Below are positions 3,873 to 24,723 of a stretch of 64,000 nucleotides of DNA, in pieces (position 1 is the first letter of the stretch; every line of letters begins with the position of its first letter). The DNA is from a virus. The notes beneath the pieces were generated by a model. The model made no database searches, had not been told where the DNA came from, and was given only the letters and a program-made list of their open reading frames with translations. The DNA lies in the IMG/VR virus record IMGVR_UViG_3300030328_003618, positions 6,738 to 70,737 of that record, one strand, 5' to 3'. A program made the translations under genes and the position numbers.

Positions 3873-5147
3873 ATGTATTTAAGAATTTCTAATGACAATG
3901 AGATTAACTACAAGGCTTTCACTCTTGTAGGAGCATCTACGAAGACTGGTAACGAAACTATTGGTCAATTCGGAACAGGTAATAAGTATGCTTTAGCATA
4001 TTTGTTGAGGAACAACTATCAAGTTAGAATATTTTCGGGAGAGAAGGAGATTAAAATCTCAACTAAAGAAGAAACTTTCGGAGATCAAAGCTTTAATGTT
4101 ATTCATGTAAACAACGAGCCTACTTCTATAACTACCAAGATGGGTAAAGAATGGAAGTTATGGCAAGCTGTAAGAGAGTTTTATTCAAACGCTTTAGACG
4201 CTGGTGATGCAGAACTAAACTGTACTACCAAAATCAAAGGCGTTAAAGGTAAAACTCACATTTACATTAATCTAACAGACGAGCTTACTGACATGGTAAC
4301 TAAAGATTTTCATTTATATTTTTCAGATGATAGTCAAGTTCTTTATGAAAATGAGCATGGTAAGATTCTAGAAAACTGTGGTAAGACAGTTATTTACAGA
4401 AAAGGAATTAAGTGTTATGAAACACATGAAACCTCTGTTTATAACTATGATATACCTAACGTTAAGATAAATGAATCAAGAGTAGTTGTGTATAGTTGGG
4501 AAGTAAACAGAGAAGTCTGGAAGATTATACTAACGTGTGATAATAAAGGAATTATTAAGAATATCCTTACAAATTTCTTAGCACAGCTAGAGTATTCTTT
4601 TGAACCACCTTACGGTATAAGCCCTTCTAAAGAGTTTATTGAAGTTTGTAATGAGATAAACGTGCAACCTTCTGGCTTAATATCTTTGCTTAATAGTAAT
4701 GAGGTTAATGGATATACATTTGTTCCTGAAAGTCTTTATTCTTATGTTAATTCTAAACTAGAAACTAAAGAAGAGTTGAAAGACCTTAGATTTGACAAAG
4801 CAAGTGGCGTTCAGTACAGAATTGTAGAAAAACCTACTCAACTTCAGATGAATACTATACATGAAGCAGAAAACTTTTTAGCTGAATGTAAGTTACCAAA
4901 CAATTTTGACGTAGTTGTAGGGAACTTTTCTAATCCAAGGGTACTAGGACATGCTAATCAAGAAGATAAGCAAATTATACTATCCGAAAAAGGCTTAGAG
5001 AGAGGTTTACATGATGTTGTTAACACTATTATTGAAGAACATATTCATTTAGAATATGATGTACGTGATTGTACTAGGGAATTTCAGCTAGAAGCTATAA
5101 ATTTGCTAATCAACTACGCTAAGAAAATGAACTCTTATAATATTTAG
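3873..5147 (+). CDS. GHKL (Hsp90/MORC-like) ATPase-domain protein
   Basis: GASTK...IGQFGTGNKYA (G2/lid) and AVREFYSNALDAG (N-box); C-terminal IIEEHIH. Confidence 0.7.
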   Translation: MYLRISNDNEINYKAFTLVGASTKTGNETIGQFGTGNKYALAYLLRNNYQVRIFSGEKEIKISTKEETFGDQSFNVIHVNNEPTSITTKMGKEWKLWQAVREFYSNALDAGDAELNCTTKIKGVKGKTHIYINLTDELTDMVTKDFHLYFSDDSQVLYENEHGKILENCGKTVIYRKGIKCYETHETSVYNYDIPNVKINESRVVVYSWEVNREVWKIILTCDNKGIIKNILTNFLAQLEYSFEPPYGISPSKEFIEVCNEINVQPSGLISLLNSNEVNGYTFVPESLYSYVNSKLETKEELKDLRFDKASGVQYRIVEKPTQLQMNTIHEAENFLAECKLPNNFDVVVGNFSNPRVLGHANQEDKQIILSEKGLERGLHDVVNTIIEEHIHLEYDVRDCTREFQLEAINLLINYAKKMNSYNI

Positions 5148-5850: not shown

Positions 5851-6134
5851 AAAAGAAAAGTTCGTTAGTTAGTATGATATTATCAACGTGTTTATTTATA
5901 ACATTATCAATAACTTGCTATGTAGCAAAGTTTAATGACAATGTATTTTTAAGCTTTACGTTCTTAATTTTTTCAATACTTTGTTTTATTACGTCAATAA
6001 GCTGTTTAAGAGATTACAAATATTTATCTGGAAAGTTGAAAGAAAGTCAATTCAAAAGACATTCACAGTATCAGTATTGGTATTACATCTACGGAAAAGA
6101 TGCTTACCAATACTATTTAAAAAGATATAAGTAG
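5847..6134 (+). CDS. small membrane protein (2 TM)
   Basis: Two hydrophobic stretches at the N-terminus. Confidence 0.6.
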   Translation: MKKKSSLVSMILSTCLFITLSITCYVAKFNDNVFLSFTFLIFSILCFITSISCLRDYKYLSGKLKESQFKRHSQYQYWYYIYGKDAYQYYLKRYK

Positions 6135-6159
6135 AAAAGTTAACCATAGTAAGTAGTCT

Positions 6160-6198
6160 TAGGGTGATAAGTAGAAATACTTGTTGCCCTATTTTTTT
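6160..6198 (+). terminator. Rho-independent terminator
   Basis: tagggtgataagta/tacttgttgcccta stem followed by T7. Confidence 0.7.
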
Positions 6199-6260
6199 AA
6201 TACTTGCCTTGCTAAAGACTGTACTTTCCCTTTGTGTTTTGAATTATAAAACTATTTATT

Positions 6261-6467
6261 ATGAGTTTAGAAGAATATGTAGAAGGTTTAAATGATTTCT
6301 TAAAAGCTAATCCAAAAGCTAAAGAACTACCAGTAGTTTATGCTAGTGACCCTGAAGGAAATAATTGGCACTATACTTTTAGTAGTCCAACTATGATAAC
6401 TAAAATTGGTCATTCAAGAAGTACATCTTATGATTTAGATGAAGCTGATGAAATTTGTATAAATTAA
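6261..6467 (+). CDS. hypothetical protein
   Basis: LPVVYASDPEGN motif; ORF after the motif at 6228. Confidence 0.6.
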   Translation: MSLEEYVEGLNDFLKANPKAKELPVVYASDPEGNNWHYTFSSPTMITKIGHSRSTSYDLDEADEICIN

Positions 6468-6472
6468 CAATC

Positions 6473-6643
6473 ATGGCTAAATTTAATATAGAAGTGATTG
6501 AAACATTGTCTAAGACAATTGAAGTAGAGGCTGATGACATGGATGAAGCTAATGTTATATTAAGCCAAAGATATCATAATGAAGATATTATTTTAGATTC
6601 TTCAGATCATGTATCTACAGAATTTAAAATTTTAAAAGATTAA
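6473..6643 (+). CDS. DpnD/PcfM-like small protein
   Basis: FNIEVIETLSKTIEVEADDMDEA...IILDSSD pattern. Confidence 0.6.
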   Translation: MAKFNIEVIETLSKTIEVEADDMDEANVILSQRYHNEDIILDSSDHVSTEFKILKD

Positions 6644-6645
6644 AT

Positions 6646-6836
6646 AAACTCTCCAAGCTAATGGATAAGCAGTGATTATAAGATGATATATGTGAAGATA
6701 ATCACAACACTTCCAAGAGTGTTAGCTTGCCTGAAAAGGCTTTATGAAGTTAGATAACAAATGTGGATACTTTGTAATTTATTGCACCGTGGACGAAGCA
6801 TTATAAGTTTATTCCACTTGGGGACTTGGAGAGTTT
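6646..6836 (+). ncRNA. putative structured ncRNA, family unknown
   Basis: Perfect 12-bp closing stem aaactctccaag/cttggagagttt enclosing hairpins gtgattat/ataatcac, aacactt/gagtgtt, gcct-GAAA-aggc and gtgga/tccac; no ORF. Confidence 0.6.
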
Positions 6837-6843
6837 TTAAATA

Positions 6844-7077
6844 ATGTTAAATGTAAAAAGCGATATGAACGAAGTGAATAATGATTCTTTACATAATGTT
6901 AGTGGCTGGTTTTTGGTTGAAATTACAAAACCAATGTCTACTACATTTAAAAAAGGAATGAATGCTTGGTGCAAGTACACAAGTAATAGAAATGACTTTA
7001 AGCTAAAAACATTGGCTGAGGATTATGAACAAGGATTTGGATTTGCATATAAACCGCACTTTAAAATTTGCCACTAA
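6844..7077 (+). CDS. hypothetical protein spanning a solitary cassette
   Basis: GTTAGTGGC (6898) is complementary to GCCACTAAC (7070-7078); the stop codon lies in TAAC. Confidence 0.55.
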   Translation: MLNVKSDMNEVNNDSLHNVSGWFLVEITKPMSTTFKKGMNAWCKYTSNRNDFKLKTLAEDYEQGFGFAYKPHFKICH

Positions 7078-7080
7078 CAT

Positions 7081-7310
7081 GAGAGAATGGCGGAATTGGT
7101 ATACGTGCCCTACATGGGTAGGGGGTAGAATAAAGAAATAAAGACAGACGTAAGTACTTAAAGTAAGTAAAAACAGTGTGAGAACTGTAATACCTTACAA
7201 TTCGGTGGCTTTTAGGAAGACTTTGACTAAAGAATCTCAATCTTAATCAAGGACACAAAAAAGTAATGCTCCTAATCTCTACACTGCAGGTTCGAATCCT
7301 GCTTCTCTTA
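7081..7310 (+). ncRNA. tRNA-like RNA (Leu-type D arm) with non-canonical anticodon loop and about 155-nt variable-arm insertion
   Basis: Acceptor GAGAGAA/TTCTCTT plus A73; D arm TGGCGGAATTGGTATACG; T arm GCAGG-TTCGAAT-CCTGC. Confidence 0.7.
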
Positions 7311-7406
7311 CAATTACTATTCAGACATAGTGATTTTTTAAAGTTCAATTAAGGCACAATGGGATTACCCGTTGTGCTTTGATGTTTAACTTTAAAAAAT
7401 CGTAAT

Positions 7407-7805
7407 ATGGAAAATTACAAAATTTACATTGATACAGACAAACCGTCTGTAAAAATCAAATTTAGTATTAGTTACTTGAAACCTAGCGAATCTTGGAATT
7501 GGGCTACTAGCGAAACTAGAGAAACTGGCTATCGAGTTACGGGAGTACCAGTTGAAAGATGGGCTGATGGTAAAGGGGAAAGCTTTACAGCTTTTAGTGG
7601 CTTTGGAGCAACCTTATTGCCTTGTAAAAGACGCTCTCAAAAGCGTTATGAACAAGCAATAGATATTTTACAAGAAAGACTACTTGATTATGTTCGTTAT
7701 TTTGAAAAGAAAGGCTATCATATTTGTCGTGATGCAATTAATACGTTAATCGAAGAAAAAGAACACAGAGATTACAAAAAACATTTAAATGCAACAGGAA
7801 TATGA
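7407..7805 (+). CDS. hypothetical protein
   Basis: ORF after the motif at 7368. Confidence 0.7.
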   Translation: MENYKIYIDTDKPSVKIKFSISYLKPSESWNWATSETRETGYRVTGVPVERWADGKGESFTAFSGFGATLLPCKRRSQKRYEQAIDILQERLLDYVRYFEKKGYHICRDAINTLIEEKEHRDYKKHLNATGI

Positions 7806-8005
7806 AAAAGCCAACAAAAAAACAGTACGAAGAATATTTAAATTCTATTTCTCCATCACAAGATAGTGAGGAATGGATAATTGGTGGTGTTCCAAGGTTT
7901 TATTATAAATACCTTAATCAATATGGAACAGCTATTAGAAAATATGATAAAATAGGTTTTCAAGTAGGTTATAATGAATATGTTTTATCTAAAAAATCAA
8001 TATAA
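7802..8005 (+). CDS. hypothetical protein
   Basis: Translationally coupled ORF; YGTAIRKYDKIGFQVGYNE. Confidence 0.6.
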   Translation: MKKPTKKQYEEYLNSISPSQDSEEWIIGGVPRFYYKYLNQYGTAIRKYDKIGFQVGYNEYVLSKKSI

Positions 8006-8271
8006 TGGAAGGACTATTTAAAGCATTAGATGAAATGCCTAATAAATTTAGTAGCACTGAATTTTGTAAAAAAGCAAGAGAATTTGGAATTACTACTAGA
8101 CAAGTACAAGACGCAGTTTGTTCTGAATTTTTAAAACAAAATGCTGTTCATGTAGAAAAAAGAACTTATACTAAAAATAAAGATAAAAGTCATCTTGAAA
8201 AATGTATCGATTATCTTAAATCAAAAGGATATAAAGTTCTTAAACCTGTAACTGAATATAAAGAATTATAA
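8005..8271 (+). CDS. hypothetical protein
   Basis: Coupled ORF. Confidence 0.6.
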   Translation: MEGLFKALDEMPNKFSSTEFCKKAREFGITTRQVQDAVCSEFLKQNAVHVEKRTYTKNKDKSHLEKCIDYLKSKGYKVLKPVTEYKEL

Positions 8272-8274
8272 GTT

Positions 8275-8529
8275 ATGGATAAAGAATTGATTAAAACAAT
8301 AGCTAGAAATGAATATTCTCATTCAATAGAGAATGATTTTGAAAATACTTCTGTATACAAAATTGAAGGTAGTGAAAGCTATTTAATTTTTTGGAATAGT
8401 TCAAATGGCGAAGAGCCAGAATTCAAATACGCATTATCTGAAATACTTGAGCTTATAATAGATGAAGAATATGAAGGTACTGTTAGTGATGGATGGAACG
8501 AAATAATGTTTAAAACCTTTAATATTTAA
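8275..8529 (+). CDS. hypothetical acidic protein
   Basis: Tightly packed ORF. Confidence 0.6.
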   Translation: MDKELIKTIARNEYSHSIENDFENTSVYKIEGSESYLIFWNSSNGEEPEFKYALSEILELIIDEEYEGTVSDGWNEIMFKTFNI

Positions 8530-8531
8530 AT

Positions 8532-8783
8532 ATGGCAAGTAAAGTATATCCAATTTGGACAAAAGTAGAAGCGTGTATCTACAAAAGCGACAAGTCATTT
8601 GGAGCAAAAGAAACAAGTAGCCAAGAAATATTTGTAGGTACAGGACCAAAAAACTCTCACAAAATTGCTGAAATATGCACAACAAGGAGAGAACATGGTG
8701 ATGAAATTGTTTTTAAATTTAGCCTTGATGGAGAAATAGTAAAAACAATTCGATTTGATAAAGAAACTAAAAAGATGATTTAA
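8532..8783 (+). CDS. hypothetical protein
   Basis: Tightly packed ORF. Confidence 0.6.
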   Translation: MASKVYPIWTKVEACIYKSDKSFGAKETSSQEIFVGTGPKNSHKIAEICTTRREHGDEIVFKFSLDGEIVKTIRFDKETKKMI

Positions 8784-8800
8784 AGATCGTTCTTTGATAC

Positions 8801-8847
8801 GGTGAGGAAAGACACATTCGCAAAATTATTTCCTCACCTTTTTTTTT
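8801..8847 (+). terminator. Rho-independent terminator upstream of the cassette array
   Basis: ggtgaggaaa/tttcctcacc stem followed by a T-run. Confidence 0.6.
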
Positions 8848-8902
8848 ACAACGATTAGTATAAGCACATACCCGATAGGGTTGGGTTTATACCTTGTTAG
8901 CT
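8846..8902 (+). repeat. attC-like site 0
   Basis: ACAAC...gtataagc/gtttatac...GTTAGCT. Confidence 0.6.
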
Positions 8903-8945
8903 GACGAAGTGAACTGTTTAAAAATTTAAAAAACAAAATATTATT

Positions 8946-9161
8946 ATGGACAATTATTTAAAAGACTTAGAAGAAATGAGCGAGCGAGGTGCAGACTTTG
9001 CTGAATACTACCACAAATTACTTGATGGTGTAAAAGACCTACAAGACAATCAAAGAGCAATGTTTGTTTGGGTTTTGATGAACAAAATTAGAGAAATTGG
9101 TTATGAGAACGGAAATAGAGCGACAAAAGAAGCTATGATTAAATTTTTAAATTGCAGCTAA
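8946..9161 (+). CDS. cassette ORF A
   Basis: Stop TAA lies within CAGCTAAC, complementary to GTTAGCTG at 8896. Confidence 0.7.
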   Translation: MDNYLKDLEEMSERGADFAEYYHKLLDGVKDLQDNQRAMFVWVLMNKIREIGYENGNRATKEAMIKFLNCS

Positions 9162-9214
9162 CGTATTGTATAAAATGCGTTGAGGAACGAAATGAATTTT
9201 ATATGGTGTTATGC
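9156..9214 (+). repeat. attC-like site 1
   Basis: GCTAAC...gtataaaat/attttatat...GTTATGC; loop gaggaacga. Confidence 0.75.
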
Positions 9215-9238
9215 ACCTTTAATTTAAAACTAATTAAA

Positions 9239-9436
9239 ATGAAAAAAAGAGAACTATATAAATTAGAATTTGTAAAAAACACTGACAACAAATGTATAGC
9301 TGTAATCAGAACTGATAATAATTACGGATTGCAAGGTTATGTTTATTCTGATGGTAGAATAAGAAAAGATTACACACCTTACACTATACCAAACTACATA
9401 GTAGAGGAATGTATGGGTATGTTTAATGGTGCATAA
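9239..9436 (+). CDS. cassette ORF B
   Basis: MKKRELY...; ends in GGTGCATAAC, complementary to GTTATGCACC at 9208. Confidence 0.7.
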   Translation: MKKRELYKLEFVKNTDNKCIAVIRTDNNYGLQGYVYSDGRIRKDYTPYTIPNYIVEECMGMFNGA

Positions 9437-9491
9437 CGGTTTGGCTATGTGCTGAACGAGGAACGAGTATAGCATATAGCTAGTGTTATAT
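9431..9491 (+). repeat. attC-like site 2
   Basis: GCATAAC...gctatgtgct/agcatatagc...GTTATAT; loop gaggaacga. Confidence 0.75.
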
Positions 9492-9522
9492 GCTTTTTAT
9501 TAACAGATTAAAACAGATTAAA

Positions 9523-9720
9523 ATGAGATTTATAGCTTCGATAAAATGGTTAGATAACGGAAACATACAAGATGATATGATTCTAAAAATTGGGGACATA
9601 GAAGAAGACGATGACGACATTTTCTTCTACTTAGATTCTGAAAGAGAATTGGAAGAATTTAAAAAAGAGGGTGTTCACGATTGGATTATTCTTGATGCAG
9701 TTAAAGATAGTTGCATATAA
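9523..9720 (+). CDS. cassette ORF C (acidic)
   Basis: MRFIASIK...; ends in GCATATAAC, complementary to GTTATATGC at 9485. Confidence 0.7.
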   Translation: MRFIASIKWLDNGNIQDDMILKIGDIEEDDDDIFFYLDSERELEEFKKEGVHDWIILDAVKDSCI

Positions 9721-9809
9721 CGGATGAGTATATAAATAGTGGCGACTAAACGCAAAGATAGATGATGGCACTAACGATGCCGAGCCATTATTTATATACA
9801 TTGTTAGGC
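9715..9809 (+). repeat. attC-like site 3
   Basis: ATATAAC...gtatataaatagtggc/gccattatttatatac...GTTAGGC. Confidence 0.8.
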
Positions 9810-9829
9810 ATCTTTTAAACTTATTAGAT

Positions 9830-9991
9830 ATGTATTTTGTAAACCATTATGTTATTGATTGGACTAAAGTAAAAACACAAGAAGATGTAATTGCTATTTT
9901 AAAAAACCTACAATTAGCATTTGAAAACCCCTCTGAAGATTTAGAGAAACTTTGTGTTTTGGTAAATAAGCAGACAGGTGAAAAAGTTTAA
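9830..9991 (+). CDS. cassette ORF D (53 aa, not in ORF track)
   Basis: MYFVNHYVIDWTKVKTQEDVIAILKNL...; flanked by GTTAGGCA and TGCCTAAT. Confidence 0.65.
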   Translation: MYFVNHYVIDWTKVKTQEDVIAILKNLQLAFENPSEDLEKLCVLVNKQTGEKV

Positions 9992-9995
9992 TTGT

Positions 9996-10047
9996 GCCTA
10001 ATGGTATAAGCAAATACCGTTTAAATGGAATTTAATTAATGTTATAA
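9996..10047 (+). repeat. attC-like site 4 (degenerate)
   Basis: GCCTAAT...GTTATAA with a weak internal palindrome. Confidence 0.55.
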
Positions 10048-10058
10048 AAAGTAAAATT

Positions 10059-10238
10059 ATGGAACCAGAGGAAAAAAGAATGTTAAGAACAATGAGATAT
10101 ATGGCTTGGGAAAGAGCCAAAGGAGAGTTAAGGAGTATGTTAGAAACCTATTGGCACGATAATGATAAATATGGCATAATGAAAGAAGCCATAGATGAAT
10201 TTATTGATGATGTTCAAGGTCACGCAAAGCAAGAATAA
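10059..10238 (+). CDS. cassette ORF E (59 aa, not in ORF track)
   Basis: MEPEEKRMLRTMRYMAWERAKGEL...; flanked by a 20-nt imperfect IR gttataaaaagtaaaattat/ataattttattgtttataac. Confidence 0.65.
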   Translation: MEPEEKRMLRTMRYMAWERAKGELRSMLETYWHDNDKYGIMKEAIDEFIDDVQGHAKQE

Positions 10239-10247
10239 TTTTATTGT

Positions 10248-10441
10248 TTATAACGCTACAACTAAACACAGTTATTTTTAAAGATTTATTAAGATGAAAA
10301 GACCAAAACAAACAGATAAAGAATGTAGAAGGCAAGGAATGACAGATGTTCCAGTTGCTAATTACTCTAAAATGCAGGATAAGTATATTGATTACTTAGA
10401 AAAGAAACTTAAAAATAATGGTGTTTTAGATGATGTTATTA
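10248..10441 (+). repeat. attC-like site 5 (long; contains an ORF start)
   Basis: TTATAAC...ctaaacacagttattttt/aaaaataatggtgttttag...GTTATTA. Confidence 0.65.
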
Positions 10442-10560
10442 AACACCGTGAACTGTTAATTGGTTTTTATAGGCATTTCTATTCTGAAATAGGATGGATA
10501 ACACATGAGGATTCAGCTATTGAAACAATTGATAAATACTTAAAATCAATTAATGGTTAA
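10294..10560 (+). CDS. ORF F, read across the attC-like junction
   Basis: Starts in the site 5 loop; GTT at 10435 is an in-frame Val. Confidence 0.65.
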   Translation: MKRPKQTDKECRRQGMTDVPVANYSKMQDKYIDYLEKKLKNNGVLDDVIKHRELLIGFYRHFYSEIGWITHEDSAIETIDKYLKSING

Positions 10561-10685
10561 TAATGGTAAGGCTATGATTAGTGCCATTTAAAATAAATAA
10601 ATTATGGAATACGAACTAAAAAGAATAGAAGCACCAAAAATTGAGGGTATGGATGAAATGGCATTAAATATAGCCAATGTTACCC
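10558..10685 (+). repeat. attC-like site 6 (long; contains an ORF start)
   Basis: TAATAAT...ggctatgattagtgccattt/aaatggcattaaatatagcc...GTTACCC. Confidence 0.7.
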
Positions 10686-10924
10686 AACGTTTTATTTCTG
10701 AGGTGCAAAAACAAGAAGAGGAACTATTTACAACTGCTTTACGAACTATGGCAGAACCTCCAATAAAAGGTGAAATAACGAAGGGAAAAATAAGGTGGAG
10801 AGGAATTAGAATAATAAGGCAACAAATAGGACTTGACTCTTATAGTTGGTTAGAGCAAAGAGGTAAACAAATAAGTCCTAAATTTCACATAGGAGCAAAG
10901 TTGCCTGACTTAAATGTTGGGTAA
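10604..10924 (+). CDS. ORF G, read across the attC-like junction
   Basis: Starts in the site 6 loop; GTT at 10679 is in frame; ends in AAATGTTGGGTAAC, complementary to GTTACCCAACGTTT. Confidence 0.7.
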   Translation: MEYELKRIEAPKIEGMDEMALNIANVTQRFISEVQKQEEELFTTALRTMAEPPIKGEITKGKIRWRGIRIIRQQIGLDSYSWLEQRGKQISPKFHIGAKLPDLNVG

Positions 10925-10984
10925 CGCCCCTTGTATGGTGGCGTATGGAATGCAATGAAATATGCACTATACAAATTGTTGTGT
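10919..10984 (+). repeat. attC-like site 7
   Basis: GGGTAAC...ttgtatggtg/cactatacaa...GTTGTGT. Confidence 0.75.
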
Positions 10985-11020
10985 GTAGTGTGGATTATTA
11001 ACAGATAAAAACTAATTGAA

Positions 11021-11197
11021 ATGAAAAAGTACATTCTAAAAGAATTAAAATACGGTTCTTATTTTCTTGATTTAAAAATGGGATGGGGTGAAGATATAAA
11101 TTTAGCTTTATTTTTTGATAGCGTTGAAGATGCTGAACGAGAGATGGAAAAACAATCAAGCGGTATTTATACTGTTATAACTATTTACATGAAATAG
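11021..11197 (+). CDS. cassette ORF H (58 aa, not in ORF track)
   Basis: MKKYILKELKYGSYF...; flanked by GTTGTGTGTAGTG and CATTACACACAAC. Confidence 0.65.
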   Translation: MKKYILKELKYGSYFLDLKMGWGEDINLALFFDSVEDAEREMEKQSSGIYTVITIYMK

Positions 11198-11203
11198 CAT
11201 TAC

Positions 11204-11255
11204 ACACAACGGTTTGAGTATGGAGCGTTTTAATGCTCTATACTTAGTGTTATGT
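11204..11255 (+). repeat. attC-like site 8
   Basis: ACACAAC...gagtatggagcgtt/aatgctctatactt...GTTATGT. Confidence 0.8.
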
Positions 11256-11275
11256 ACTTTTAATATAAGGAATAT

Positions 11276-11473
11276 ATGAAAGCAAGAGATTTAATAAAAG
11301 AATTGGAAAAACACCCAGATTGGGAAGTTACGGTAAGCGTTGATATTTCAACAAATGAGGATGAAAATGATAGACGAGCATTTGGTGAGCAAATAATAGA
11401 AGTTATAAATGAAAATAGTAGTAACCAATTTACTATATGTTTTGATGGTTATGATAACTATAATTGTACATAA
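11276..11473 (+). CDS. cassette ORF I
   Basis: Ends in GTACATAAC, complementary to GTTATGTAC at 11249. Confidence 0.7.
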   Translation: MKARDLIKELEKHPDWEVTVSVDISTNEDENDRRAFGEQIIEVINENSSNQFTICFDGYDNYNCT

Positions 11474-11537
11474 CATCCTTGTAAACGAGCTTGAGCGACA
11501 GTCGAGGTACGAGATTGCGTTTACAATACTGTTATAT
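11468..11537 (+). repeat. attC-like site 9
   Basis: ACATAAC...ttgtaaacg/cgtttacaa...GTTATAT; loop gaggtacga. Confidence 0.75.
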
Positions 11538-11579
11538 TTTTAAGACACATACCCTATGTGTCTTGATTATTTATAATCC

Positions 11580-11587
11580 TATATTTG
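11580..11587 (+). promoter_or_regulatory. possible Bacteroidota primary-sigma -7 element (TAnnTTTG)
   Basis: TATATTTG 30 nt upstream of the P-II start; a short motif in AT-rich DNA. Confidence 0.4.
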
Positions 11588-11616
11588 CAGTATTATTTAA
11601 TTAAATCAATTATTTT

Positions 11617-11955
11617 ATGAAAAAAGTTGAAACCATCATCAGAAAATCTCAATTCGATGATGTGAAATCGGCTCTCATGAACGTTAAGGTAACTTTCTTT
11701 AGTTATTGGGACGTGACTGGTGTCGGTAATGAGAAAATTGGTAACGTCTACAGAGGTGTTGAGTACAATACATCTGATATTCAAAGACGATACCTATCAA
11801 TAGTTGTATCTGATGAATTTTTAGATAGAACTGTAAAAGCTATTCTTGATTCTGCTTATACTGGCAAAGTTGGAGATGGTAAAATATTTGTAAGTGATAT
11901 CCAAGAAGCATATCGCATCAGAACTCGTGAAAGAGGAAACCAAACGCTTAATTAA
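11617..11955 (+). CDS. glnK: P-II nitrogen regulatory protein
   Basis: 112 aa; MKKVETIIR, T-loop YRGVEY, TGKVGDGKIFVS; adjacent to amt. Confidence 0.95.
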   Translation: MKKVETIIRKSQFDDVKSALMNVKVTFFSYWDVTGVGNEKIGNVYRGVEYNTSDIQRRYLSIVVSDEFLDRTVKAILDSAYTGKVGDGKIFVSDIQEAYRIRTRERGNQTLN

Positions 11956-11956
11956 T

Positions 11957-13183
11957 ATGGAAATGTTAACGGTAAACAACGTATGGATGATGATATGCAC
12001 TGGATTAGTGTTTTTCATGCACCTTGGTTTTTCATTCTTAGAGATTGGATTAACTAGACAAAAGAATACTATCAATATTTTATTCAAGAACATCTTCATA
12101 ATTTGTATGGGGCTTCTTGTTTATTACATTGGTGGTTTTAACCTAATGTATCCTGGATTTTCTGAAGGGGATTTAGGTATCTTAAAGTTTGCAGGATTTG
12201 GAATTGATGCTCCTGTAAATGGTATGACTGCTGAATACGCTAGTGGAGGATATACTTGGTGGACAGATTTCTTGTTTCAAGGTATGTTTGCAGCTACTGC
12301 TGCAACTATTGTAAGTGGAGCTGTAGCAGAACGTATCAAGCTAACGAGCTTCATGCTATTTAGTTTTATCTATGTAGGATTTGTATACCCTATAGTAGGT
12401 AGCTGGAAATGGGGAGGAGGATTCTTAGATAGTCTAGGATTCTACGACTTCGCAGGTTCTACATTAGTACATTCAGTCGGTGGATGGGCTGCTTTAGTAG
12501 CTGTATGGTTACTTGGAGCTAGATTAGGTAAGTTTAATAAAGGCAAAGCTATTCCAATATTTGGTCATAACATTCCTTTTGCTACGGCAGGAGTATTAAT
12601 ATTGTGGCTAGGTTGGTTTGGTTTTAATGGAGGGAGTGTACTTAGTGCAGACCCTACATTAACTAGTTTAACTTTAGTAACAACTTGCTTAGCCGCTGCC
12701 GCAGGAGGAATAGGGGCTGCTATTACATCTTATATTAAAGATAGTAGTTTTGACTTATCCATGTTCTTAAATGGAATCTTAGGAGGTCTTGTAGCTATTA
12801 CAGCAGGAGCAGACCAAATGAGTCCTAATGAATCTGTAGTAATAGGATTAATTGGAGGTATACTTGTAGTTCTTGTTGTAAATCTGTTAGACAAACTTAA
12901 ATTAGATGATCCGGTAGGAGCTATTGCAGTTCACTTAGGTTGTGGAATTTGGGGAACTTTAGCTGTAGGTATCTTTGGTAACATGGCAGGATTCAATCAG
13001 TTCCTAACACAGCTTTCAGGAGTTTGCATAATTGGAGCTTTCTGCTTAATCTCTTCATTCATAATTCTTTTTATCATTAAGAAGACTATGGGGCTTAGAG
13101 TTTCTAGAGAAGAAGAACTTGAAGGACTAGACACAGCAGAACATAAAATGTCAGCTTATCCTGACTTTAGACTTAAATCTTAA
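11957..13183 (+). CDS. amtB: ammonium transporter (Amt family)
   Basis: FQGMFAATAATIVSGAVAER, DFAGSTLVH, LWLGWFGFNGGS, LDDPVGAIAVH (twin His retained); start re-assigned to MEMLTV. Confidence 0.97.
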   Translation: MEMLTVNNVWMMICTGLVFFMHLGFSFLEIGLTRQKNTINILFKNIFIICMGLLVYYIGGFNLMYPGFSEGDLGILKFAGFGIDAPVNGMTAEYASGGYTWWTDFLFQGMFAATAATIVSGAVAERIKLTSFMLFSFIYVGFVYPIVGSWKWGGGFLDSLGFYDFAGSTLVHSVGGWAALVAVWLLGARLGKFNKGKAIPIFGHNIPFATAGVLILWLGWFGFNGGSVLSADPTLTSLTLVTTCLAAAAGGIGAAITSYIKDSSFDLSMFLNGILGGLVAITAGADQMSPNESVVIGLIGGILVVLVVNLLDKLKLDDPVGAIAVHLGCGIWGTLAVGIFGNMAGFNQFLTQLSGVCIIGAFCLISSFIILFIIKKTMGLRVSREEELEGLDTAEHKMSAYPDFRLKS

Positions 13184-13193
13184 TTTTAAAAAA

Positions 13194-14153
13194 ATGAAAT
13201 ATATATTTTTATTATTGGCACTTATTACTACAGTGTCTTACGGACAAGACAACACTAAATCAGTTTCTTTTGAAGGTAGTTTAGATGTTTATTACAGAAG
13301 GAATTTAAGCACAGCAAATACAGAAGTAGCACCAGCTACTTCTTTTGCTAACCTAAATGGATTCTCTCTTGGAATGTTTAATTTAATAAGTAGTTACGAT
13401 ACAAAAAATACTGGGTTTGTAGCAGACTTAGTATTTGGACCAAGAGGTGAAGATGCAGTATTTTTATCAAGTGGAAACTCAAGCATTATCAATCAGCTAT
13501 ATGCTTATTGGGATGTTAGCGACAATGTTACCTTGACGATGGGTAACTTCAATACCTTTCTAGGTTACGAAGTAATATCTCCTACTGGAAACTTTAACTA
13601 TTCTACTAGTTATATGTTTTCATATGGACCATTTTCTCATAGTGGATTAAAGGCAGACATCAAACTAGCAAGTGATTTCACTTTTATGTTAGCTGTTTTA
13701 AATGCTACTGATGAAACGGAATTTAATTCTTCAAACTTCAGTACACTTGGAACGCAATTAGCTTATAAGAACACTTATTTAAACGCTATTTATGGTAAAC
13801 AAAGCCCAACTTCTGAAGCTACTTTTCAAGTAGATTTAACTGGTTGTTATGATTTATCTAAAAAGTTTTATTTAGGAATTAATAGTACCTATAACGATAC
13901 TGAAGGAGATGGATTTTATGGCGTTGCTTTATATCCTCAATATTCATTTGGTAAACTAAAAGCTGGAATTAGAACAGAATATTTTTCTGATAAAGTTTCT
14001 GATGTTATAAACTTAACAAGCACTTTAGATTATACAATTGAGAATTTAAATCTAAAACTAGAATATAGATTTGATAAATCTAGTGATGTAGTATTTGAGC
14101 AAAAAGATAACCTATCTAGCGTTATTCTAGCCGCAATTTACTCTTTTAATTAA
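13194..14153 (+). CDS. outer-membrane beta-barrel porin, Bacteroidota amt-associated type
   Basis: Signal peptide, amphipathic strands, GNFNTFLGYE..NFNYS motif, C-terminal YSF. Confidence 0.8.
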   Translation: MKYIFLLLALITTVSYGQDNTKSVSFEGSLDVYYRRNLSTANTEVAPATSFANLNGFSLGMFNLISSYDTKNTGFVADLVFGPRGEDAVFLSSGNSSIINQLYAYWDVSDNVTLTMGNFNTFLGYEVISPTGNFNYSTSYMFSYGPFSHSGLKADIKLASDFTFMLAVLNATDETEFNSSNFSTLGTQLAYKNTYLNAIYGKQSPTSEATFQVDLTGCYDLSKKFYLGINSTYNDTEGDGFYGVALYPQYSFGKLKAGIRTEYFSDKVSDVINLTSTLDYTIENLNLKLEYRFDKSSDVVFEQKDNLSSVILAAIYSFN

Positions 14154-20381: not shown

Positions 20382-21068
20382 ATGAAGCCGAATACACTTA
20401 TTCTCGGAGCATCTGGTACAGGAAAATCTTCTAGTATCAGAAATTTACCAAAGGACACAACGATTATCTTTAATACAGAGAGAAAAACGTTGCCGTTTAG
20501 AGAAGGTAAAGATTTTAAAATGAACTTTGCGATACACAACTACGCACAGTTTGAAAAAGCCTTTGACAAGGCATTAAAAAGCGATAAGATAACTCACATT
20601 GTTGTTGAGTCTTTAACGTCTTTGATAGAAATGATTGATGAACATGCTGAACGTATTACGGGAGGTGGTTTTGACAAATGGGCTCTTTATAATACTACAT
20701 TAGCAGAAGTCTTTAAAAAGTCAAAGTCATCTTTAGACAAGTATGTTTTTATGATTTCGATTGACCAAGTAATTGAAACTTCTGAAGGTATTGCAGAAAG
20801 ATATGCAGTAGTTCAAGGTAATAGATGGAAAAAGTCTATTGAGAAAGAATTTGTTAACGTATTGTATTCTACTGTCGAAGAAAAAGATGGAGATTTTAAA
20901 TACGTATTTTTAACAAACAAAAATTCTAAATACAGTAACGTTTCAGCTAAAACTCCTTTAGATTTAGCACCAGAGTATATTCCTAACGATTTAGATTTAT
21001 TTCAAAAGCGTTGTGAAAAATACTTTGAAACAGATGAAAAGTTAGAAAGTATTGATATTTATTTATAA
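20382..21068 (+). CDS. AAA_24/Sak4-like P-loop ATPase
   Basis: LILGASGTGKSSSIRNL, NTERKTLPF, SAKTP. Confidence 0.85.
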   Translation: MKPNTLILGASGTGKSSSIRNLPKDTTIIFNTERKTLPFREGKDFKMNFAIHNYAQFEKAFDKALKSDKITHIVVESLTSLIEMIDEHAERITGGGFDKWALYNTTLAEVFKKSKSSLDKYVFMISIDQVIETSEGIAERYAVVQGNRWKKSIEKEFVNVLYSTVEEKDGDFKYVFLTNKNSKYSNVSAKTPLDLAPEYIPNDLDLFQKRCEKYFETDEKLESIDIYL

Positions 21069-23387: not shown

Positions 23388-23879
23388 ATGATTGATAGCT
23401 TCGATAGAGGATATGTTATATTACATAATCAATCAAATGAATACGTTAATACAGCAGTAACTAAATTTAAGTACAGTAAACATTCTTTAAATCATTTAAT
23501 AGAAAAGTTAAAAGAAAAAGAAGAAGTTCCTAAAGAGTATGTTAATGAAATAGAAGAATTTTACAGAGAAAAAGATAGTGTAGATACTATACCTTTAAGT
23601 CTTACTCAAATTCGAGATGTTTTATTAGATGCTGATTTATTAATTGAATTTGTAAAGAAAAAACAAATTGATTGGGAAATAATAGACATTAATAGTGTTA
23701 TTAGTTTATTTCCAAAAAAGAAAAAAGCTCGAGCAAATCCAAAAGAAAAAGTTCTTTTAGAGAACATGAGTAAAAATGCATTACGGTTTGAAGCATTGAA
23801 ATTAGAAGAACAAACCGAAAGACTAATTGAAGAGGTAAAAAGTTTAATTGAAAAAGCAAAAGGAAATGATTACAAGTAG
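23388..23879 (+). CDS. hypothetical protein
   Basis: ORF; likely start MIDSFD. Confidence 0.6.
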   Translation: MIDSFDRGYVILHNQSNEYVNTAVTKFKYSKHSLNHLIEKLKEKEEVPKEYVNEIEEFYREKDSVDTIPLSLTQIRDVLLDADLLIEFVKKKQIDWEIIDINSVISLFPKKKKARANPKEKVLLENMSKNALRFEALKLEEQTERLIEEVKSLIEKAKGNDYK

Positions 23880-24723
23880 CGACCAAGCAAGGGATTATTT
23901 AGAACATTTAAAAAACACAGACCCGAACAAAAAACGTCGAATAGACGAAGATGACAATTGGTATTTTGACGAAAAAGAGTATATCTCTAATTCAATGTTA
24001 AAACAATTTCAGAAAGGTGGTATAAGAAATTATATGTGTTATCTAAATGGAGAACTTAAAAAGTCATCAAAGGCTTTTAATATAGGTAGTGCTTTTCATT
24101 GCATGGTTTTAGAGCCAGAAGAATTTGGAGCAAGATACTACGTTATTGATGACGAAGAGATTTGTGAAGAAATAGGTGGTAAAAAACCTAGAATGACTAA
24201 GAAGTATAAAGAGTGGTATCAAAACGAAGTTGTTCCATCTGCAGAAGGGTTAACTATTCTATCTCAAGATGAGATGAACAATTTAGATAAAATGTTTGCA
24301 TCATTCTCTAAGATAGAAGAAGCAACAAGTTTAATTAAAGCTTGTGATTTAGTTGAAAGTATTTATACTAATAATTTTAACGGTACTAAAGTAAAGTGTA
24401 AAGTTGATGGTATAAAGTTTGACAACTTTGTAATGGATTTAAAAAGCACAAGTTCTAATGTAATGGAATTTGAAAAGAGTTGCAGAATGTTTGATTACGA
24501 TCAAGCTGCTGCTTTATATTGCGATATTGTAGATATTAAAGACTATTACTTTATTGTAGTAGAAACTATGTATCCTTACAATGTAGGTGTATTTAAAGCA
24601 GATAGTTCTTTTCTAGAAAGAGGTAGAGCAAAGTATGAGCAAGGATTAAAAGACTTGACTTATCATTTGTCTAATCCTGATTTAGATGTAAGTAAAAAAT
24701 TCATTAGTCAAACATTGTATTAA
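23866..24723 (+). CDS. RecE/ExoVIII-like PD-(D/E)XK exonuclease (DUF3799-like)
   Basis: ISNSMLK, GSAFHCMVLEPEEF, KCKVD, DLKST, YDQAALY. Confidence 0.9.
   Translation: MITSSDQARDYLEHLKNTDPNKKRRIDEDDNWYFDEKEYISNSMLKQFQKGGIRNYMCYLNGELKKSSKAFNIGSAFHCMVLEPEEFGARYYVIDDEEICEEIGGKKPRMTKKYKEWYQNEVVPSAEGLTILSQDEMNNLDKMFASFSKIEEATSLIKACDLVESIYTNNFNGTKVKCKVDGIKFDNFVMDLKSTSSNVMEFEKSCRMFDYDQAAALYCDIVDIKDYYFIVVETMYPYNVGVFKADSSFLERGRAKYEQGLKDLTYHLSNPDLDVSKKFISQTLY

Follow-up and report, generated by a model that had tools for sequence, protein, structure and literature searches.

The 64,000-nucleotide stretch analysed here (the window; positions 6,738 to 70,737 of IMG/VR virus record IMGVR_UViG_3300030328_003618) comes from a virus record of 70,737 bp that is rated complete, and at 8846-11537 it carries nine short open reading frames (ORFs) on the + strand, separated by ten attC-like sites. 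We consider it likely that this array is a cluster of attC sites lacking an integrase (CALIN), composed of nine one-gene integron-type cassettes with sites of a family that also occurs in arrays of Flavobacteriaceae, and that the cassettes are probably moved by a recombinase of the host. Ten sites were found within 2.7 kb, as expected of a CALIN, and a six-frame search of the entire 70,737-bp record gave no tyrosine recombinase (no PF00589 match). A preliminary description of this DNA had listed ten attC-like sites and nine pairs of complementary cassette ends, with no integrase in the window; all ten sites and all nine pairs were present.

The sites follow the general form xTAAC, 5-6 nt, stem, loop, stem, 3-4 nt, GTTAx, and AAC/GTT cores flank the imperfect palindrome in all ten of them (AAT in two). 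When the five bases adjoining the 4-nt core were compared, the two ends of one and the same cassette proved complementary at 41 of 45 positions over the nine cassettes, a sum reached by none of 100,000 permutations; pairs taken from the same site matched on average at 1.4 of 5 positions, and other pairs at 1.8 of 5. Across nine phage loci, an own-end repeat of at least 8 nt was present in 24 of 28 neighbouring site pairs. When 18 sites from this and other phages were aligned, nine of ten stem pairs covaried, changing on both sides, and none of 500 shuffles reached the score. The covariance model built from these 18 phage sites only is referred to as R1, and sites were called with this model of our own. 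With filters off, R1 returned nine sites on the + strand of positions 6000-12500 (six of the nine belonging to the training set) and none on the - strand. The comparison with Rfam motifs that had been suggested earlier gave no match in the window at gathering thresholds. The stop codon lies in the core TAA in c1, c2, c3, c7 and c9 and just before the TAA in c6, to which the earlier count of six stop codons in this motif is a fair approximation, and the loops of S5 and S6 contain the c6 and c7 start codons, respectively. Under the proposed mechanism the + strand would fold, and exchange would take place within the AAC that precedes each hairpin on its 5' side. A cassette would then run from the C through a spacer, the hairpin, a second spacer, the GTTA-extension and the gene to the extension-TAA, and its ends would pair once the cassette is circular.

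Relatives were taken to be seven viral contigs encoding the gene at 7407-7805, and the variable stretch is that between the conserved gene 8532-8783 and the next conserved gene. In contigs L021 and L022 this stretch measured 174 and 245 nt and held no site, and in L010 and L020 it measured about 680 nt and held one and two cassettes, respectively; it reached 2.4 kb with about six cassettes in L023 and 2.8 kb with nine cassettes in the window. The full record of L022 (G005) was collinear with the phage over its whole length and had zero sites. Single units also recurred in other neighbourhoods. The unit 10561-10926, comprising the S6 hairpin and c7, was 96% identical in L023, with a different cassette before and a different site after it, and the unit 11208-11474, comprising the S8 hairpin and c9, was 93% identical in L001 with other cassettes on both sides. 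At S5, the stem arms and the following GTTAT core were conserved in L023 and were then followed by a different protein tail. Whole-cassette differences between relatives and recurrence of cassettes elsewhere bear out the earlier idea of a shufflable library; phages would acquire and lose cassettes, and unrelated marine phages would exchange them.

The borders of the exchanged units were read from homology breaks. When the array was compared with 14 other loci, the start of 16 of the 19 homology blocks fell 2-5 bases ahead of the C of an AAC core, and two blocks had such a core at their end. Contigs from four marine metagenome runs had starts at 8850, 9157-9160, 9433-9435, 9999, 10561 and 11206 and ends at 9721, 10924/5 and 11474, and covered 10561-10925 and 11206-11474; these are assembled contigs, for which the uncovered parts of the array are uninformative, and three joints with short sides of 22-34 nt were left uncounted. 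Because homology blocks and contigs break at the 5' AAC, the hairpin belongs to the downstream cassette. Judged from these breaks, the hairpin travels with the downstream gene, and the border is the AAC 5' of the hairpin on the + strand, that is, G^TT of the complementary strand, and not the + strand G^TT that had been proposed. Of the earlier expectation on cassette order in relatives, precise gain and loss was thus upheld, and the breakpoint was placed at AAC instead of at the + strand GTT. In ten loci, different ORFs follow the S2 hairpin together with its GTTATATGC end and leader, and at least seven different contexts adjoin the S2 module on its upstream side, with the junction falling exactly on the 4-nt core. 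The S1 module recurred in L045, L007, Polaribacter phage P12002S and metagenome contigs.

The same site family was found in bacteria. A covariance-model check on bacterial genomes had been recommended, and of 151 Flavobacteriaceae genomes sampled, 21 contained R1 matches at E<=0.001, whose scores rose to 50 bits, the same level as for the phage sites; the loop motif CGTTTTAATG is common to many bacterial and phage sites. In genome G126, one strand carried 25 matches within about 70 kb, 23 of them at E<1, and the other strand a single one (E 1.4); this array begins about 2 kb after the gene of a 376-aa Xer/IntI-like recombinase. In G126 and in G150, where five sites lie beside a homologous gene, the genome's best match to the integron-integrase model heads the array and points into it, and the XerD-like recombinase at the 5' end is co-directional with at least two downstream genes. 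In G156 and G157 one site lies 12-13 kb from the recombinase gene on the same contig. Bacterial cassettes of G126 had complementary ends in 9 of 16 site pairs. The 376-aa recombinase scored 223 bits on NF040815, 'site-specific tyrosine recombinase/integron integrase' (cut-off 220), its nearest solved structures were XerA and then IntI4, and its 110-residue N-terminal part was found in 37 of the 151 genomes. The search for a recombinase that had been called for was thus negative in the phage record and positive in Flavobacteriaceae chromosomes, and the earlier proposal of integron-type cassettes moved by a host tyrosine recombinase agrees with the position of the site family beside such a gene. 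Most likely the enzyme would be the recombinase of a flavobacterial host acting on phage DNA during infection; since the virus records are without a tyrosine recombinase and the array-bearing phages share almost no genes, a host enzyme is the simplest reading.

Phages and bacteria differed in the strand that carries the genes. In phages the genes lie on the R1 model strand, in the window as well as in phage G002 and in the depositors' annotation of P12002S, and all nine array ORFs together with the ORF of a solitary tenth cassette lie on the attC bottom strand. In bacteria the genes abutting the sites lie on the strand opposite to the model strand, at 11 of 11 loci and throughout G126. Known marks of the bottom strand are a point of exchange that lies between the A and C of its AAC, a surplus of G:T mispairs, and an excess of purine or G together with a lower folding energy (PMC5027507). 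On the + strand of the phage sites, G.T outnumbered A.C mispairs by 13:0 in the ends of 24 cassettes and by 42:9 in the stems, the latter in an alignment fitted to the model; 233 G were counted versus 122 C, and the DNA folded better on the + strand in five of six sites. The same site strand of G126, which is not the mRNA strand there, had 5 G.T versus 0 A.C. Since this strand is antisense to the genes in bacteria, the strand bias belongs to the DNA site and not to the mRNA. By these marks, the + (coding) strand of the phage is the attC bottom strand, the folding strand, and by comparison only, exchange is placed in the AAC of this strand. The spacers of the sites are unequal, 5-6 versus 3-4 nt, an asymmetry that had been held to be unlike classical attC; it is explained, and as a peculiarity disappears, because the + strand is the attC bottom strand. 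Lying on the sense strand, the sites might in addition have a role as RNA.

The sense-strand position of the sites is also one of several observations that weigh against movement by a host integron-type recombinase. No consistent extrahelical (unpaired) base was seen; instead, 9 of 18 sites had a conserved G.T pair. No circle or excision junction was seen in the assembled metagenome contigs. A second class of breaks lies near start codons (9229-9233 and 9503-9513, with starts at 9522 and 11279), and L020 has the S4 hairpin and both ends of cassette 5 around an ORF unmatched to c5 by tblastn. None of six virus records, this phage included, contained a tyrosine recombinase; five of the six carry sites, and three of the five others are rated at least 90% complete. 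By BLASTP, no ORF of this phage (G000) had homologues in all of the other array-bearing phages G001, G002 and G003. On TIGR02249 the 376-aa recombinase reached 192 bits, under the cut-off of 265, and it has 21 residues where this model has 62 positions, a gap that would correspond to the IntI-specific extra domain. Its N-terminal domain co-occurs weakly with the sites, being present in 7 of 21 genomes with sites and in 30 of 130 without, and c7 was not found in 401 Flavobacteriaceae genomes with the query used.

Some of these observations could be accommodated if the hairpins were RNA-level signals (for processing, stability or termination), with the genes shuffled by homologous recombination between hairpin-plus-leader modules in the manner of promoter-early-stem-loop (PeSL) cassettes, which are documented together with mini-circles (PMC2839356; PMC4122927). 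The phage sites are always on the sense strand, and the conserved module begins at the AAC core and stops shortly ahead of the start codon. In RNA, G.U pairs would be stable. The phage also has genes for an AAA_24 protein and a PDDEXK nuclease, and no recombinase was found in it or in the five other virus records. Homologous exchange, however, leaves unexplained that the S2 module is fused to at least seven upstream contexts with the junction precisely at the 4-nt core, and the bacterial sites are antisense to the flanking genes in all 11 loci and lie beside a tyrosine recombinase. Moreover, sigma-70-like promoter matches were not enriched (16 found versus 26.4 expected), and end complementarity was unique to each cassette, as a circular intermediate predicts. 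We regard this account as unlikely for the array as a whole. The breaks near start codons and the identical frames around unmatched ORFs suggest nevertheless that homologous exchange also acts; between repeated modules, and aided by phage recombination genes, it probably adds to the shuffling, as in PeSLs.

The presence of the site family in host chromosomes could also mean that the array is a passive fragment of a chromosomal integron, acquired by illegitimate recombination and without further exchange, and phages with pieces of chromosomal integrons have been published for Vibrio (PMC9892861). We find this very improbable, given that the polarity of genes relative to the site is opposite to that of the bacterial arrays, that relatives differ by whole cassettes at one locus, and that units are common to unrelated phages. 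Nor did the content of the array point to a bacterial source: the exact S2-type pattern was found in only 2 small contigs of metagenome-assembled genomes (MAGs), in a collection with one genome per species and 185,579 species, and c7 was not found in the 401 genomes.

Cassettes moved by host integron-type recombination remain the preferred reading. A more far-reaching version would be that marine Flavobacteriaceae phages keep a mirror-image cassette pool of their own, with genes on the recombining strand, traded between unrelated lineages by means of a borrowed, non-IntI, Xer-like recombinase of the host. We give this version a little less than an even chance; if it holds, phage and host would have one integron-like system in common, which standard integron tools may miss, and each site would also fold in the early mRNA of the phage.

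The phage itself carries genes for a portal, a large terminase and a major head protein, the last 25-29% identical to the counterparts of crAss-like phages. Of the earlier label of a lytic crAss-like phage, the crAss-like affinity thus holds only as a distant one, and the lytic habit is presumed. Further genes are DnaB, AAA_24, a PDDEXK nuclease, a PRTRC-type set, DUF932 and a P-II/Amt/porin operon. The AAA_24 protein, which we take to be Sak4-like, and the PDDEXK DUF3799 nuclease lie at window 20382-21068 and 23848-24723; they are likely a phage recombination pair, which could drive exchange at short repeats. No gene of the IS200/IS605 or HUH type was seen in the annotated parts of the genome. 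This bears on a further explanation, in which an IS200/IS605-like single-strand hairpin transposase, or another HUH enzyme cutting after TAAC, would move the units in a manner that we presume to be similar to IS608. The units are bounded by the same tetranucleotide with the hairpin a few bases inside the left end, and the strand bias points to a folded single strand; the right end, however, has no local hairpin, and the bacterial arrays sit beside a tyrosine recombinase. Weighed on anatomy, transposition of this kind was set aside as highly improbable.

The cassette ORFs were compared at the codon level. Between the window and L023, c7 had 11 synonymous and 2 non-synonymous codon changes, and between the window and L001, c9 had 12 synonymous and 6 non-synonymous ones; the adjoining sites were identical at 43 of 43 and 67 of 69 positions in the same comparisons. 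Since third-position and synonymous changes dominate, the cassette ORFs are, on this codon evidence, real genes. In PHROGs, three of the nine cassette proteins had weak matches to functionally uncharacterised families only, and Pfam gave one match among the nine, sub-threshold, for c6. Combinatorial assembly of proteins across cassettes was considered and rejected, as under the corrected borders the loop with the start codon and the gene body share one cassette and move whole.

The coordinates of sites and cassettes are collected in Table 1. To the right, the array is bordered by a promoter-like hairpin (11540-11566) ahead of the P-II gene, and to the left by a terminator-like hairpin. The T-run of such a hairpin directly preceded the first AAC core in all four arrays of which the left end was seen, and it may be the entry site of the arrays. 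S9 looks like a resident half-site, and its hairpin is retained at the right end of the array in L020. The solitary cassette lies 1.8 kb upstream of the array, between a structured element at 6646-6836 and a tRNA-like element at 7081-7310; the conserved genes flanking this locus are about 760 nt apart here versus about 130 nt in the collinear G005. ARAGORN found no tRNA or tmRNA in 6000-12000, and the tRNA-like element is therefore not a standard tRNA. The P-II/Amt/porin operon (window 11617-14153) follows the array here and in L020 and is missing at the locus in L010 and L021-L023. In L019, which has no R1 site, the operon is found not downstream of the 7407-7805 homologue but about 9.7 kb upstream of it, so the operon itself moves between phage loci.

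Table 1. Sites, cassettes and related features. Positions are those of the window unless another contig is named; cassettes are given with corrected borders, from the C of one AAC core to the AA of the next.
Feature	Position	Strand	Remarks
Intrinsic-terminator-like hairpin and T-run	8801-8845	+	T-run leads straight into first AAC core; sequence reading
Site S0 (CAAC ... GTTA)	8849-8899	+	R1 35 bits; training-set member
Site S1	9159-9211	+	AAC core to GTT core
Site S2	9434-9488	+	AAC core to GTT core
Site S3	9718-9806	+	16-bp stem; R1 20.5 bits, outside training set
Site S4	9999-10044	+	R1 34.5 bits, outside training set
Site S5	10251-10438	+	18-nt stem, 10264-10281 with 10409-10426; 127-nt loop; missed by R1
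Site S6	10561-10682	+	20-nt stem, 10570-10589 with 10656-10675; 66-nt loop; missed by R1
Site S7	10922-10981	+	R1 37.6 bits
Site S8	11207-11252	+	AAC core to GTT core
Site S9, last of array	11471-11534	+	AAC core to GTT core
Cassette 1	8852-9161	+	S0 hairpin and ORF c1 (8946-9161, 71 aa); ends GTTAGCTG/CAGCTAAC, 8/8
Cassette 2	9162-9436	+	S1 hairpin and ORF c2 (9239-9436); 15-nt end repeat, 14 paired
Cassette 3	9437-9720	+	S2 hairpin and ORF c3 (9523-9720); ends 9/9
Cassette 4	9721-10001	+	S3 hairpin and ORF c4 (9830-9991)
Cassette 5	10002-10253	+	S4 hairpin and ORF c5 (10059-10238); 20-nt end repeat, 18 paired
Cassette 6	10254-10563	+	S5 and ORF c6 (10294-10560)
Cassette 7	10564-10924	+	S6 and ORF c7 (10604-10924)
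Cassette 8	10925-11209	+	S7 hairpin and ORF c8 (11021-11197); 13-nt end repeat with one G.T
Cassette 9	11210-11473	+	S8 hairpin and ORF c9 (11276-11473)
Solitary tenth cassette	6842-7078	+	Site 6842-6901 (R1 25.1 bits); 47-aa ORF 6934-7077; ends GTTAGTGGC/GCCACTAAC
T-run before first core	window 8801-8852; L010 ~4805-4845; L023 ~2085-2125; L020 ~4250-4300		Sequence reading
G126 array	contig 14, 465-545 kb (L061-L064, L069)		Beside 376-aa recombinase
G150 array	contig 3 (L065, L070)		Five sites beside homologous recombinase gene

The array-bearing phages G001, G002 and G003 share almost no genes with this phage. In G002, an unrelated 68-kb phage, at least 11 sites of the family were found at about 41.5-57.5 kb (L035), scattered in small groups, all on the same strand, through a 16-kb region of small early-type genes. 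In Polaribacter phage P12002S two family sites lie around an annotated methyltransferase gene, on the same strand, and at 6015-7900 (L079) two DNA methyltransferase genes lie in cassettes of the site family. The ends of its first site match within the site itself (CAGGTAAC ... GTTACCTG), like those of an unrecombined site. A blastn search of 7000-14000 against phage records gave only a 67-nt match, to P12002S, and a search with the DUF932 neighbour gave only three loci. A pattern scan of viral contigs gave 18 matches, of which 8 lacked the hairpin and were chance matches.

If the proposed reading is true, virulent phages would hold fast-changing accessory early genes by way of the integron-type recombination machinery of their hosts, and research on phage genome plasticity would thereby be joined to that on integrons. 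For the small cassette genes, host takeover or counter-defence are obvious candidate functions. The mirrored polarity bears on how cassettes are made and on the importance of strand choice, and the site family points to Flavobacteriaceae, perhaps Polaribacter, as the host group of this uncultured phage. Polaribacter phages P12002S and P12002L offer an isolated relative of the system, open to bench tests.

Of the known systems, classical and sedentary chromosomal integrons have in common with the array the AAC/GTT cores, the imperfect palindrome and the complementarity of own ends, as well as exchange in the AAC of the folding strand and enrichment of G:T and G on that strand (PMC5027507). The array differs from them in its location in a phage without an integrase, with no attI or Pc promoter identified, in genes on the bottom strand, in that no clear extrahelical bases were seen, and in a host recombinase below the integron-integrase cut-off. 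Promoterless top-strand genes read from Pc were not found, and neither was an adjacent IntI with the IntI-specific extra domain. The rAID-1 clusters of gut Bacteroidales hold immunity genes and have a 5' XerD-like recombinase, co-directional genes and intergenic repeats 'reminiscent of integrons' (Ross et al., preprint 10.1101/471110). They have the same layout as the host-side arrays G126 and G150, a likeness by layout; unlike the present arrays, they were described in gut Bacteroidales, and the part of the preprint available to us does not mention phage arrays. The PeSL cassettes of T4-type phages likewise consist of small, functionally uncharacterised genes with stem-loop modules, differ by whole units and have no dedicated phage recombinase (PMC2839356, PMC4122927). 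PeSLs, however, combine a promoter with a terminator and move by homologous exchange, whereas the present array has no promoter signal, complementary ends unique to each cassette and breaks at a 4-nt core. No sigma-70-type early promoter joined to a terminator was found, and terminator-like matches overlapped only three of the ten sites (9205, 9471 and 11214).

At the level of titles and abstracts, the papers listed gave nothing on attC sites in crAss-like phages, and in the publications accessible to us no description of mirrored gene polarity in phages was found. The kind of element as such is already known, as integrase-less attC clusters in virulent phages have been published. A survey of 10,705 phage genomes reported 17 CALINs, each with at least two attC sites, and one of the carriers is the virulent Polaribacter phage P12002L (Qi et al. 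2023, PMC9892861). Under IntI1, five of six tested phage sites recombined with attI1, among them one site of the P12002L CALIN (PMC9892861). These published CALINs likewise consist of attC-type sites and cassettes in phages without an integrase (PMC9892861), and P12002S, the sister of P12002L, carries sites of the present family. Compared with what is reported for them in that source, the present case shows ten consecutive sites, comparative signs of turnover, cassettes common to unrelated phages, and a polarity that places the genes on the bottom strand. What is added here is thus a ten-site array in a crAss-like phage, if only a distant one, comparative evidence for gain and loss of cassettes at the core, their sharing between unrelated phages, the match to arrays beside a non-classical recombinase in the probable host family, and the mirrored polarity of the genes.

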